Of a stretch of 5,985 nt of DNA, positions 2,195-5,985 are shown one piece after another. Location: IMG/VR virus record IMGVR_UViG_2693429582_000012; one strand, 5' to 3'. Each line of letters begins with the position of its first letter. Position 1 is the stretch's first letter. The translations under genes and the position numbers were made by a program. Source of the stretch: a virus. Taxonomy: Duplodnaviria > Heunggongvirae > Uroviricota > Caudoviricetes. A model generated the notes under the pieces. It did no database searches and was not told where the DNA came from. It was given only the letters and a program-made list of their open reading frames with translations.

Positions 2195-2404
2195 TTATAA
2201 GGAAACACCAGCAGGGCCGCGGCGACCAACAGAACGATTAAAATCAATAATGCCATTATAAAGGACATTATTTAATTTATCGTCGAATGCTGATTCTGTG
2301 AGCCTCAACTCTGAATGAGTTTTTAATAACCCTGATTGCCTGAGTTGATTTACCAGGCATTCAATCTGTTTTTCAATAAGCGGATTTCTTTTTTTGTTTG
2401 GCAT
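2195..2404 (-). CDS. Hypothetical protein, 69 aa, convergent with the 216-aa gene
   Basis: GGAGG (minus 2414..2410) 5 nt upstream of ATG 2404..2402, preferred over the upstream ATG at 2416 which has no RBS. AT-rich, no family recognised. Confidence 0.5.
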   Translation of the reverse strand: MPNKKRNPLIEKQIECLVNQLRQSGLLKTHSELRLTESAFDDKLNNVLYNGIIDFNRSVGRRGPAGVSL

Positions 2405-2755
2405 TTTATCCTCCATTGAGGTTCTGGGTTAAAAATGGAGACCAACACGCTGTCACGTGTGGTCGTGCGCCGGACACGGATAAGAATCCGGTACTGACAG
2501 TTTACTGAAAGGATATTTCCCTGAAAAGTCAGGGCATAACGCGAAAGCGTACGGCGAAGCTCTTTCCCTTAGAAGGCTTGTCGTTAGATTTCTTCGAACG
2601 TGCGCTTCCGGTTGTGGCACTCCGCGAAATGGCGCGGCGGTAAGTATGGCGGGGTTATTCCTTCCCCTTGAGGACACCGGGTTGTCAGGTTGACCATACG
2701 CTTAAGTGACAACCCCGCTGCAACGCCCTCTGTTATCAATTTTCTGGTGACGTTT

Positions 2756-2798
2756 GGCGGTATCAGTTTTACTCCGTGGCTGCTCTGCCGCCCTTTTT
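2756..2798 (+). terminator. Possible intrinsic terminator-like element
   Basis: GGCGG (2756..2760) and CAG (2764..2766) pair with CTG (2785..2787) and CCGCC (2788..2792), with a 3-nt bulge and an 18-nt loop, followed by T5 (2794..2798). The stem is imperfect, so this is weak. Confidence 0.3.
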
Positions 2799-2802
2799 AA
2801 AG

Positions 2803-2950
2803 TGAATTTTGTGATGCGGTGAATGCGGCTAAGCGCACGCGGAACAGTTAAAACCAAAAACAGTGTTATGGGTGGATTCTCTGTATCCGGCGTTAATTGT
2901 TAACTGGTTAACGTCACCTGGAGGCACCAGGTACCGCATCACAAAATTCA
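2803..2950. repeat. 18-bp perfect inverted repeat pair flanking 112 bp
   Basis: 2803..2820 TGAATTTTGTGATGCGGT is the exact reverse complement of 2933..2950 ACCGCATCACAAAATTCA, checked base by base. Confidence 0.85.
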
Positions 2951-2967
2951 TTGTTGAGGACGCGATA

Positions 2968-3156
2968 ATGGAAACGTTATTACCAAACGTTAATACGTCT
3001 GAAGGTTGTTTTGATATTGGTGTTCTGCTCAGTAACCGGGAGTTTACTGAAGATGCCATTAATATGAGAAAATATGAGCCTTATCTGCTCAATGATAATT
3101 CCATACTTTCCCGAATTGCTCTTCTTGAACTTGGTATTTTCGGAGAACGTCAATGA
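2968..3156 (+). CDS. Small hypothetical protein, 62 aa
   Basis: GAGGA (2956..2960) 7 nt upstream of ATG 2968. The longer frame from GTG 2863 has no RBS and would run through the inverted-repeat region. Confidence 0.55.
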   Translation: METLLPNVNTSEGCFDIGVLLSNREFTEDAINMRKYEPYLLNDNSILSRIALLELGIFGERQ

Positions 3157-3344
3157 CTTCAGCATTTGCACTGATGATGACGGTTTTTCTTATAACGGGT
3201 GAATCACAGAATGTGATTACCGGAATTTATGCCAGTAAAGAATCCTGCCTCCAGGCAAGAGACGAGCAAAAAATTTCTGGTGAATGCCTCCCGGTAAAAA
3301 AAAAAGTATCGCTGTACCTGAATAACGAAACACCGGCTGGATAA
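3153..3344 (+). CDS. Small hypothetical protein, 63 aa, with N-terminal hydrophobic segment
   Basis: ATG 3153 overlaps the upstream stop (ATGA), with GGAG (3142..3145) 7 nt upstream. The N-terminus MTSAFALMMTVFLITG is hydrophobic, suggesting a signal or membrane anchor; two Cys residues follow. Confidence 0.55.
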   Translation: MTSAFALMMTVFLITGESQNVITGIYASKESCLQARDEQKISGECLPVKKKVSLYLNNETPAG

Positions 3345-3436
3345 CCCTCCAGCCATATTAACACCATACCAACGGATTAAAAATGCCAGCAATGGCAGGG
3401 ATTTGTTCACCCTTAAATCTGTAATGAGGTTTATCA

Positions 3437-5881
3437 ATGAGCACTGATAAAGAAGAATTTGCGCTATATTGCGAAGCAAAAAATGACAAAGTCAGAAAAC
3501 GTCTGGGAATTAAAGGTGGTTTTTACTGGACTACAGCAAAAAAATTATCTGTTGCCATCTCCCGCTGCATTACCGCAATGGATGACAACGATTATGATGA
3601 AGACGACTTTAAAAAACCCGTTCGCGTCCATTTACCCGTTGTGAATGACCTTCCACCTGAAGGCGTGTTTGATACCGAATTCTGCAACCGATACGAAAAA
3701 GGCGGGGAAGATGGCATTACAATGGTATTTATCGCGCCCTCTCCCTCCGTGCAGGAGAAACCAGCCAGTACTGACAATACCAACGTCAACAGCGAAGACA
3801 TGACGGAGATTGAGGAGAATATGCTCCTGCCGGTTTCTGGTCAGGAGCTGCCCATTCGCTGGCTTGCGCAACACGGCAGCGAAAAACCAGTAACGCACGT
3901 TGCACGGGAAGAACTTCAGGCATTACATATAGCACGGGCGGAAGAACTGCCTGCTGTTACTGCCCTGGCCATTTCTCACAAAACAAAGCTGCTCGACCCG
4001 CTGGAGATTCGCGACCTTCACAAACTGGTACGCGACACAGACAAAGTTTTCCCTAATCCCGTTAATTCCAGTCTGGGGTTAATGACTGCTTTTTTCGAAG
4101 CATACCTGGACGCTGACTATACCGATCGAGGTCTGCTGACAAAAGAGTGGATGAAAGGAAATCGTGTTTTACGCATCAGCCGCACGCCATCCGGCGCTAA
4201 TGCTGGCGGAGGAATTCTTACCGATCGCGGTGAAGGTTTTGTCCACGATAATGCGTCAGTGGAACGTGACGTTGCCGCTGGCGTTCTGGCCCGTTCAATG
4301 GACATCGATATTTACAATCCACATCCGGCACACGCCAAACGCATTGAAGAAATCGTTTCAGAGAATAAGCCGCCCTTTTCTGTTTTTCGTGACAAATTCA
4401 TCGCCATGCCTGGTCACCTGGATTATTCCCGCGCGATAGTGGTTGCGTCCGTGAAAGAAGCACCAATTGGTATCGAGGCTACTCCCCACCGTGTTACCGA
4501 ATATCTGAACAAAGTACTGACCGAAACCGACCATGCCAACCCTGATCCAGAAATCGTGGATATTGCCTGCGGTCGCTCCTCTGCTCCAATGCCGCAGCGT
4601 GTAACAAAAGAAGGAAAACAGGATGATGAAGAAAAACCGCAGCCATCTGGCGCAATGGCAGATGAACAGGCAACGACTGAAGCAGTGGAACCGGATACAA
4701 CTGAACATAATCAGGACACGCAGTCGATGGATGCTCAGCCACAGATAAATTCTGTTGATGCGAAATATCAGAAACTGCGGGCAGAACTCCATGAAGCCCG
4801 GAAAAACATTCCGCCCCAAAATCCTGTCGATGCAGACAAATTACTGGCTGCCTCTCGCGGAGAATTTGTTGAAGGGATTAGCGACCCGAATGATCCGAAA
4901 TGGATTAAGGGGATCCAGACCCGCGATTCTGTGTACCAGAATCAGCCAGAAACGGAACAGAACGACCAGAAAGCGGAACAGAACAGCCCAAATACGCAAC
5001 AAAACGAGCCAGAAACGAAACAACCTGAACCAGTAGTGCAACAGGAACCGGAAAAGATCTGCACCGCCTGCGGTCAGAGGAGTGGCGGCAACTGCCCTGA
5101 TTGTGGCGCGGTGATGGGCGACGCAACATACCAGGAAACATTCGATGACAAGAACCTGGTTGAAGTTCAGGAAGACGATTCGGAGAAAATGGAAGGCGCT
5201 GAACATCCACACAAGGAGAATGCTGGCAGCGCTCAGGACCACGCCAGCGATAGTGAAACTGGCGAGACAGCAGATCCCTTAATTACGGTGAACGGTCATC
5301 GCATTATCACATCCACCCGCAGGTTGTGGCACCATCTGATGATTGACCTTGAAACAATGGGCAAAAATCCTGACGCACCAATAGCCTCAATAGGCGCTGT
5401 ATTTTTCGATCCACAAACCGGAGAGCAGGGGCCTGAATTCAGCAAAATAATTGATATGGGTACATGTGGCGGCACTGTAGACATAAGCACCATCGAATGG
5501 TGGCTTCAACGCTCTGGCGAAGCCCGTGCCGCCATTTTAGCTGATCGAATACCGCTTGATGATGCGCTTTTACAATTACGGGAATTTATAGACGAAAACT
5601 CCGGTGAATTTTTTGTCCAGGTCTGGGGAAATGGAGCCAACTTCGACAACACGATTTTGCGCCGTTCATACGAACGGCAGGGGATCCCCTGCCCGTGGCG
5701 TTGCTACAACGATCGCGATGTACGCACAATCGTTGAGCTGGGGAAAGCCATAGACTTCGATGCCAGAACTGCTATCCCATTCGAAGGTGAGCGCCATAAT
5801 GCACTTGATGACGCCCGTTACCAGGCAAAATACGTTTCAGTTATCTGGCAAAAACTGATCCCGAATCAGGCTGATTTTTAA
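3437..5881 (+). CDS. recE: RecE-like recombination exonuclease, 814 aa: RecE-type N-terminal region fused to a C-terminal DEDDh 3'-5' exonuclease domain
   Basis: GAGG 7 nt upstream of ATG 3437. Long stretches (for example [42 protein letters not shown] and [17 protein letters not shown]) match my recollection of E. coli Rac RecE (exonuclease VIII) N-terminal sequence. The last ~190 aa instead carry DnaQ-like motifs: LMIDLETMG (D637, E639), NFDNTIL (D737), [13 protein letters not shown] (H787, D792). Confidence 0.9.
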
Positions 5882-5985
5882 TGTTCAACCCCGGTCGTTG
5901 CCCACCAGCTATAGTGGCGGCGACCATGATTAGCGAACGACGCTCATGGCAAGACTTATTCTGCTCACTGAGTGGGCAAAAGAGG
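5881..5985 (+). CDS. 5' end of a downstream ORF ([15 protein letters not shown]...), cut by the window edge
   Basis: ATG 5881 overlaps the RecE-like stop (TAATG), and the frame stays open to the end of the window. It has no clear RBS and no resemblance to the RecT or Bet N-termini I remember. Confidence 0.3.
   Translation, partial: MFNPGRCPPAIVAATMISERRSWQDLFCSLSGQKR

Follow-up and report, generated by a model that had tools for sequence, protein, structure and literature searches.

Canonical RecE is a 5'-3' nuclease with a PD-(D/E)XK (lambda-Exo-like) domain. In the Rac prophage of Escherichia coli K-12, its gene stands in the order recE-recT-ralR-rcbA-xisR-intR. Phage T4 encodes DexA, a 3'-5' DNA exonuclease with roles in host DNA degradation and intron homing, and an E. 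coli homologue of DexA, EcD ('HREX', Kang et al. 2025), degrades T4 DNA modified with 5-hydroxymethylcytosine (5hmC) and protects cells; both enzymes degrade DNA 3'-5' (PMC12153337). According to the relevant sections of a 2025 Genome Research paper, the recombination (Rec) modules of lambdoid phages may contain DnaQ-like 3'-5' nucleases, for example in epsilon34, and DnaQ-type nuclease genes occur sporadically very near int (PMC12315714). Here we analyse a gene that joins RecE-type sequence to a domain of the DexA type. It lies in a 5,985-nucleotide stretch of Caudoviricetes DNA (IMG/VR record IMGVR_UViG_2693429582_000012; hereafter the window, meaning the whole stretch) and is a complete open reading frame (ORF) of 814 amino acids at 3437..5881 on the + strand.

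An earlier reading of the letters alone (the sequence-only reading) had proposed that this protein resembles RecE over residues 1 to about 620 and carries a DEDDh exonuclease domain in place of the RecE nuclease domain. We found this to be correct. The protein is an intact chimera of a RecE N-terminal part (RecE-N) and a DEDDh domain, with all active-site residues, a predicted DnaQ fold and a record of purifying selection. Taken jointly, its identity as a RecE-N/DEDDh exonuclease, its predicted activity and its separation from any RecET pair make up a reading that we consider likely. The parts of the gene are as follows.

3437..5881, + strand: RecE-N/DEDDh fusion exonuclease, stop codon TAA at 5879-5881
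3437..4816, + strand: type-A (Rac RecE-like) N-terminal module, aa 1-460, from Pfam, NCBIfam and BLASTP
3605-4003, + strand: PF06630 (Exonuc_VIII) match, aa 57-189, E 3.7e-33
4829..5287, + strand: acidic Q/E/P-rich linker, aa 465-617, common to canonical RecE and both N-terminal types of the fusion
4944..5023, + strand: tandem repeat of 21 nt (7 aa), 3.8 copies, within the linker
5060..5104, + strand: zinc-ribbon-like CxxC-x7-CxxC cluster (C542, C545, C553, C556), kept in K-12 RecE; weak Pfam DZR match
5283..5288, + strand: breakpoint, aa 616-618, where RecE similarity stops in DNA and protein and DEDDh-side sequence (VNGH...) starts
5288..5878, + strand: predicted DEDDh (DnaQ-like) 3'-5' exonuclease module, aa 618-814
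5330-5848, + strand: PF16473 match, aa 632-804, profile positions 1-177 of 177
5345-5347, 5351-5353, 5645-5647, 5795-5797 and 5810-5812, + strand: catalytic codons for D637, E639, D737, H787 and D792, respectively

Employing BLASTP with K-12 RecE (from NC_000913.3), we aligned residues 58-617 to RecE 50-592 at 75% identity; beyond residue 617, no significant similarity to K-12 RecE was detected. Residues 1-617 also aligned to positions 1-603 of the 877 positions of the NCBIfam RecE equivalog model NF007259. In DNA, the window matched Rac recE at 83% over 3775-5283; the match ended abruptly at 5283, and in genomes with canonical recE a junction-spanning probe matched only up to that same position of the window. 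The Pfam match for the PD-(D/E)XK domain of K-12 RecE (PF12684) lies at aa 615-850 (4.1e-28), and the break in the window protein sits just upstream of where this catalytic core would begin. A Pfam scan of the window protein gave no PF12684 or other PD-(D/E)XK match. The junction residue was identical across all E. coli fusion copies examined.

Like Rac RecE, the window protein has PF06630, the acidic linker and the CxxC-x7-CxxC cluster, the last of which had already been pointed out from the sequence, and its gene occupies the same slot in a lambdoid early-left operon. Unlike RecE, it lacks the PD-(D/E)XK domain, falls below the equivalog cutoff of NF007259 (whole-protein score 1084.5 bits, cutoff 1269) and has the reverse predicted polarity; its gene is followed directly by xis-int and not by recT. 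The tandem repeat at 4944-5023 accounts for a 14-aa insertion relative to K-12 RecE. The same repeat encodes heptads of the QNxPETx type, and the A-rich coding strand of this region has an AT skew of up to 0.38.

The C-terminal part matched PF16473 (DexA/Rv2179c-like) over the full length of the profile, with a score of 215.7 bits against a gathering cutoff of 27 and an E value of 5e-64. The five motif residues named in the sequence-only reading were found exactly where it had placed them. In an alignment of 44 sequences, D637, E639 and D737 were invariant and H787 and D792 were at least 90% conserved; D637/E639/D737/H787/D792 align with D7/E9/D119/H186/D191 of T4 DexA. An AlphaFold2 model of aa 610-814 had a mean predicted local distance difference test (pLDDT) score of 83 and a predicted template modelling (pTM) score of 0.80. 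In a Foldseek search against the PDB, DexA (8KEL/8KEN) ranked top (E 1.9e-10, template modelling score 0.71). Next came RNase T, a Cas2-DnaQ domain, Orn and REXO2; the probability was 1.00 for DexA and the first three of these, and no PD-(D/E)XK fold occurred among the 50 PDB matches listed. A profile search of PDB sequences returned DexA as the sole match (6.5e-16), and T4 DexA itself belongs to PF16473 (2.4e-22). In the model, the fold of the domain is DnaQ-like (RNase H-like alpha/beta). On each point named beforehand as able to overturn the domain assignment, the result went the other way: the modelled fold is not of the PD-(D/E)XK kind, the DEDD residues are conserved, and the similarity to RecE holds up in alignment. 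A promoter and terminator scan of 2400-5985 gave nothing above background pointing to separate expression of the DEDDh domain.

The fusion was compared in seven copies, namely the window and six further copies from five E. coli genomes (attachment sites at ompW, potC and tRNA-Ser) and the sequenced phage Tritos. The ORF was intact in all seven (812-824 aa), although in the DEDDh domain the proteins diverge by up to about 35%. Based on the Nei-Gojobori method, the ratio of nonsynonymous to synonymous substitution rates (dN/dS) was 0.19-0.26 for the DEDDh module (aa 618-814; pairs with dS 0.43-1.2), 0.3-0.5 for the linker (aa 401-617) and 0.16-0.43 for the N-terminal module (aa 113-400; alignable pairs only). 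Clearly, the intact fusion is under purifying selection.

These values bear on the idea that the gene is a relic without function: illegitimate recombination would have removed the RecE nuclease domain and recT from a RecET system, now decayed, and joined the rest by chance, in frame, to an exonuclease gene nearby. Derivatives with truncations or internal deletions are indeed common and the region is highly mosaic, and 'Exo VIII-type' systems are described as defective in 6 of 7 prophages of O157 Sakai in the relevant passages of PMC2669165. Against such a relic stand the intact ORFs at this level of divergence, the low dN/dS of the DEDDh module (about 0.2) and of the linker, and the conservation of all catalytic residues. 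The junction is moreover kept in 3010 genomes, the fusion occurs in sequenced phage genomes, and the same two modules are paired through another linker in Enterobacter at 34% and 58% identity. We regard decay to a functionless relic as highly improbable.

The DEDDh module has two kinds of described relatives. T4 DexA resembles it in its PF16473 membership, in giving the best fold match and in its identical DEDDh catalytic residues; it differs in that identity is only ~20-28%, that the window domain lacks the extra loops of DexA, and that it does not stand alone but follows about 617 aa of RecE-type sequence in one polypeptide. Closer in sequence are lambdoid phage proteins. LLS gp34, a PF16473 protein, has a DEDDh module 54.6% identical to that of the window protein, is encoded in the slot directly before xis-int and comes from a Chi-rich phage without a Rec module; the Exo of mEp235 is 58% identical in the DEDDh module and is encoded in the order Erf-SSB-DEDDh exo-Abc2. 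Unlike the window gene, LLS gp34 and the Exo genes of epsilon34 and mEp235 are standalone genes of 182-190 aa. The suggestion that a 3'-5' nuclease near recombination genes would be without precedent did not survive this comparison, as standalone relatives lie in Erf-SSB-Abc2 modules and such nucleases are discussed in sections of PMC12315714.

The relationship to DexA also raises the question of whether the protein could be an anti-phage (superinfection exclusion) nuclease of the HREX type, which, in the manner of EcD, would protect the lysogen by selectively degrading hydroxymethylcytosine-modified DNA when T-even phages infect. It shares a Pfam family with T4 DexA, and EcD does degrade 5hmC-containing T4 DNA and protect cells (PMC12153337); prophage genes frequently serve defence; and 38% of bacterial DexA homologues come from Escherichia (PMC12153337), a share in which these prophage genes must be counted. 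We compared the residues at issue by way of a proxy. The cloning primers of EcD (HAK9828821.1) show that the protein starts with MIDTET, and the forward primer retrieved from viral contigs an EcD-like 189-aa protein; the reverse primer had no match in viral contigs and the C-terminus of the retrieved protein differs, so that it serves as a proxy only. This protein has A78, W132 and E145, as PMC12153337 describes for EcD, and is ~40% identical to the window domain. In the window protein, the equivalents are Y757 (W152 in DexA), K770/A771 (D169 in DexA) and D709, which retains the tetramer residue D90 of DexA (A78 in EcD); these equivalences are tentative, as they come from alignments at 28-40% identity. 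As far as such alignments indicate, the proposed signature of 5hmC recognition is absent from the window protein. The window protein is in addition a large fusion and not a standalone protein of ~190 aa, and PADLOC models gave only a generic CRISPR-associated DEDDh match (1.8e-6). Its gene stands by xis-int at the distal end of a repressed early-left operon, and expression in the lysogen is therefore not expected. A role in HREX-type defence thus appears unlikely.

The substrate could instead be RNA, the enzyme trimming or degrading RNA 3' ends (of short oligoribonucleotides, of small RNAs (sRNAs) such as DicF, or of host or phage transcripts) as is reported for Rv2179c and the oligoribonucleases of this fold. 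Pfam annotates the family as 3'-5' exoribonuclease, RNase T, Orn and REXO2 are among the fold matches, and one transcript covers the gene and the DicF sRNA. The nearest relatives to have been solved and characterised, DexA and EcD, are DNases, however; standalone homologues lie within DNA recombination modules, the sequence to which the domain is fused comes from the N-terminal part of a DNA exonuclease, and RNase T, too, acts on DNA. We give an RNA-directed function little credence.

We return to the reading of the protein as a DNA exonuclease. By analogy with T4 DexA, for which the direction is established, 3'-5' polarity is a reasonable expectation for the DEDDh fold, and the fusion would act as a metal-dependent 3'-5' exonuclease on DNA 3' ends. 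This part of the sequence-only reading stands as a prediction. The same reading had presented the reversed polarity as a puzzle in a partner of an annealing protein, and that framing has to be given up, as no single-strand annealing protein (SSAP) was found at the locus.

The window is 99.5% identical to the ompW-adjacent prophage of E. coli O157:H7; the counterpart of the fusion protein in that record is RefSeq WP_000102133.1, named 'exonuclease'. The host element is a Qin/Sp9-like lambdoid prophage at ompW, in which the fusion gene ends the dicF-dicB-ydfD early-left operon. The overall order is cI-like repressor, DUF1391, ORFs with no known function, DicF, dicB, ydfD-like DUF1482, fusion, excisionase, integrase and ompW. 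The features of the window outside the fusion gene are listed below.

47-731, - strand: divergent YdaS/YdaT-like pair
834-1223, + strand: cI-like repressor, 129 aa, helix-turn-helix domain, without a peptidase domain
1544-2194, + strand: ORF of 216 aa, no Pfam match
2195-2416, - strand: ORF of 73 aa, no Pfam match
2742-2793, + strand: DicF sRNA (Rfam RF00039, 75 bits)
2968-3156, + strand: dicB
3153-3344, + strand: ydfD-like DUF1482 ORF, 63 aa, intact in the window
5881..5985, + strand: start of a 46-codon ORF opened by the ATG at 5881 (TAATG overlap with the fusion stop), unannotated, no Pfam match
5946..5985, + strand: start of the excisionase gene (82 aa, PF07825), followed beyond the window by a lambda-type integrase gene and the ompW attachment site

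The 129-aa repressor resembles the peptidase-less repressors of the Sakai prophages Sp4, Sp6, Sp9 and Sp10, of which Sp6, Sp9 and Sp10 are reported in the relevant passages of PMC2669165 not to be inducible by mitomycin C. The DUF1482 ORF is annotated as frameshifted in the 99.5%-identical prophage of O157:H7 Balcarce_24.2, with a length difference of one base.

All early-left ORFs were compared with Pfam, and the two without a Pfam match (216 and 73 aa) also with PHROGs. No SSAP domain was found in these ORFs by either comparison; the two ORFs matched only PHROGs of unknown function (phrog_2151 and phrog_4274). At the locus there is no gene for a strand annealing protein (SAP), a single-strand DNA-binding protein (SSB) or an anti-RecBCD protein, and the fusion gene abuts xis-int. 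A likely partner gene had been thought to begin at 5881. The ATG at this position opens an ORF of 46 aa only, which overlaps the excisionase gene in another frame and is probably not a gene; the true next gene is that of the excisionase, from 5946. In the six further copies, xis-int likewise lies directly 3' of the fusion and dicB or kil lies upstream, DUF1482 is upstream in five (six of seven with the window), and an SSAP was absent from the early-left operon in every one. No annealing protein lies near the fusion in any of the copies, so that the fusion does not supply the nuclease of a RecET-like pair; in terms of mechanism, it would not act in resection and annealing of the RecET type. Its expression would coincide with that of the rest of the early-left operon, in lytic growth.

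The corresponding operon of the K-12 Qin prophage reads dicF-dicB-ydfD-ydfE-IS2-intQ, and ydfE holds the slot of the fusion gene. YdfE (b1577) resembles the window protein in this operon slot and differs from it in being truncated by IS2, in having no nuclease domain and in its N-terminus, which is of a second type (type B, see below). Residues 1-256 of YdfE are 99% identical to the type-B (Tritos-type) fusion N-terminus; ydfE is therefore an IS2-truncated remnant of the fusion gene family. The dicB operon of K-12 Qin has its intact counterpart in the window.

Chi sites (GCTGGTGG) were found at 205-212, 694-701 and 5902-5909, all on the - strand; three such sites in the 6-kb window compare with 0.15 expected from shuffles. 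A one-strand Chi pattern was also seen in Tritos (three sites) and LLS (four sites), and no Chi site was found in the Rec-module loci of mEp235 and Rac. According to sections of PMC12315714, lambdoid phages include a large class that lacks a Rec module and carries many Chi sites, and growth of these phages is aided by RecBCD. The Chi pattern of the window fits this class. The fusion gene lies outside the definition of a Rec module given in the same sections and fits the near-int DnaQ-type class. The phage would thus belong to the Chi-rich phages without a Rec module and may rely on host RecBCD and RecA, and the fusion is a candidate factor for such RecBCD-dependent lambdoid phages.

What the enzyme might do in such a phage can be proposed in outline. 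Of its possible jobs, the likeliest would be the trimming of 3' tails or ends of phage DNA or of competing DNA, and the RecE N-terminal region may provide a targeting or interaction platform that is independent of the nuclease attached to it. The N-terminal region occurs with either of two unrelated nucleases and is retained where RecT is absent; its role can therefore be specific neither to RecT nor to 5'-3' resection. A specific cellular role in conditioning DNA ends for the host RecBCD/RecA pathway is possible, if speculative. A wider proposal, which we hold to be doubtful, is that the RecE N-terminus (about 600 aa) is nuclease-agnostic and brings the attached nuclease, whether a 5'-3' PD-(D/E)XK or a 3'-5' DEDDh enzyme, to DNA ends or a host partner common to both. 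On this view, the DEDDh version would represent a second phage strategy, free of an annealing protein, for example the blunting or trimming of 3' tails to permit the loading of host RecBCD and its action at the many Chi sites of the phage.

Several points weigh against the DNA exonuclease reading and the roles proposed with it. PF16473 is named for the exoribonuclease Rv2179c, so that an RNA substrate is possible. Many copies of the fusion are in defective prophages, and decayed derivatives exist, among them K-12 ydfE, a Klebsiella allele broken by a TAG, and the internal deletions P0077 and P0100, in which the D-x-E motif is lost. The N-terminal region of RecE has no known function (PMC11611040), and the structure model of the N-terminal 460 aa, built with near-identical homologues (95-99%) only, was unusable (pLDDT 28, pTM 0.18). 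The link to Chi and RecBCD rests on few loci and on the generalisation of one paper. Sections of that paper explicitly do not count int-proximal DnaQ-type nucleases as recombination proteins and state that a 3'-5' exonuclease usually inhibits homologous recombination (PMC12315714). The literature searched gave no paper stating that a DEDDh domain replaces the RecE nuclease, and none testing such a protein.

The distribution of the fusion in complete E. coli genomes (n = 5426) was determined with a 501-nt probe centred on the junction, a match being counted when at least 80% of the probe was covered. The junction was present in 3010 genomes (about 55%), in up to eight places per genome, and DNA for the nuclease domain of Rac-type recE in 1730. 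Among 'RecE-like' proteins of E. coli, the DEDDh form is commoner than canonical RecE, and this gene family explains the K-12 pseudogene ydfE. The rarity implied by the sequence-only reading is not borne out, and the product has in fact been named by PGAP, variously as 'exonuclease', '3'-5' exonuclease' and '3'-5' exoribonuclease domain-containing protein'. The fusion is also present in the phage genome records Tritos, HannyBb and mEp460, and PHROGs 2082 and 20376 span its architecture. The domain swap is therefore already catalogued in RefSeq, Pfam and PHROGs under a generic name that is broadly correct, and is undescribed in the literature searched. The class of int-proximal DnaQ-type nucleases was noted in 2025 in sections of PMC12315714; the fusion of RecE-N with a DEDDh domain is not mentioned in the main text of that paper, as covered by a search for the term 'fused' and by two relevant sections.

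Other sources label fusion products 'exodeoxyribonuclease VIII'. In the relevant passages of PMC2669165 (Asadulghani et al.), the Sakai prophages Sp4, Sp6, Sp9-12 and Sp14 are said to have 'Exo VIII-type' recombination systems, 'intact only in Sp10'. These resemble the case at hand in that the window prophage is ompW-integrated and of a Sakai Sp type; they differ in that the Sakai proteins are classed as RecE-like and mostly defective, and those passages mention no differing nuclease domain. The Sakai genes were scored as defective in six of the seven prophages and were therefore read as defective RecET. Labels such as 'exodeoxyribonuclease VIII' or defective RecET would predict the wrong chemistry and polarity for the fusion, and recognition of the swap would correct these annotations. 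For recombineering, the warning is that RecE homologues selected from genomes on their name or on the likeness of their N-termini might not be enzymes that resect 5'-3'.

The fusion occurs with two N-terminal types that cannot be aligned with each other. Type A (Rac-like) is found in the window and in the E. coli copies L008, L009 and L010, and type B in L006, L007, Tritos and K-12 ydfE; aa ~465-814 are common to fusions of both types. Over about 200 aa, the type-B N-terminus is only 27-28% identical to RecE of Gifsy-1, Gifsy-2 and HK225. A search with the full-length protein gave only homologues 93-96% identical and added no diversity. Enterobacter hormaechei has an intact fusion of 826 aa, in which identity is 34% for the N-terminal and 58% for the DEDDh module and the linker is a different one that lacks the zinc ribbon; the pairing of the two modules therefore reaches beyond E. 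coli. A '239-aa' protein of Enterobacter was set aside as a partial gene call within the intact 826-aa ORF. Of 59 diverse RecE-N-like proteins taken as representatives, each 600 aa or longer, 17 had PF12684 (PD-(D/E)XK), 10 had PF16473 and 3 had a RecT domain. The three with a RecT domain in the same polypeptide (within P0241-P0389) could be RecE-RecT fusions or frameshift read-throughs.

Some derivatives of the locus have lost part of the gene. In the E. coli proteins P0077, P0087 and P0100, a type-B N-terminus (YdfE-like, PF27430) is joined to a DEDDh domain without D-x-E, and these show that the locus is decaying in some lineages. E. coli 'standalone' proteins of 183 aa (P0086) were rejected as artefacts, in which runs of N in scaffolds break the fusion ORF. 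In Klebsiella grimontii (L016, 3672-5720) and in L017, a RecE-N ORF of 423 aa and a DEDDh ORF of 239 aa share one reading frame, with a single TAG and 54 nt between them, and the first ends within a conserved motif; the arrangement was seen in these two samples. Gene fission had been considered as evidence of functional coupling and was dropped for P0086, for the '239-aa' protein of Enterobacter and for the Klebsiella pair, which is most simply a nonsense allele, the alternative being a real split.

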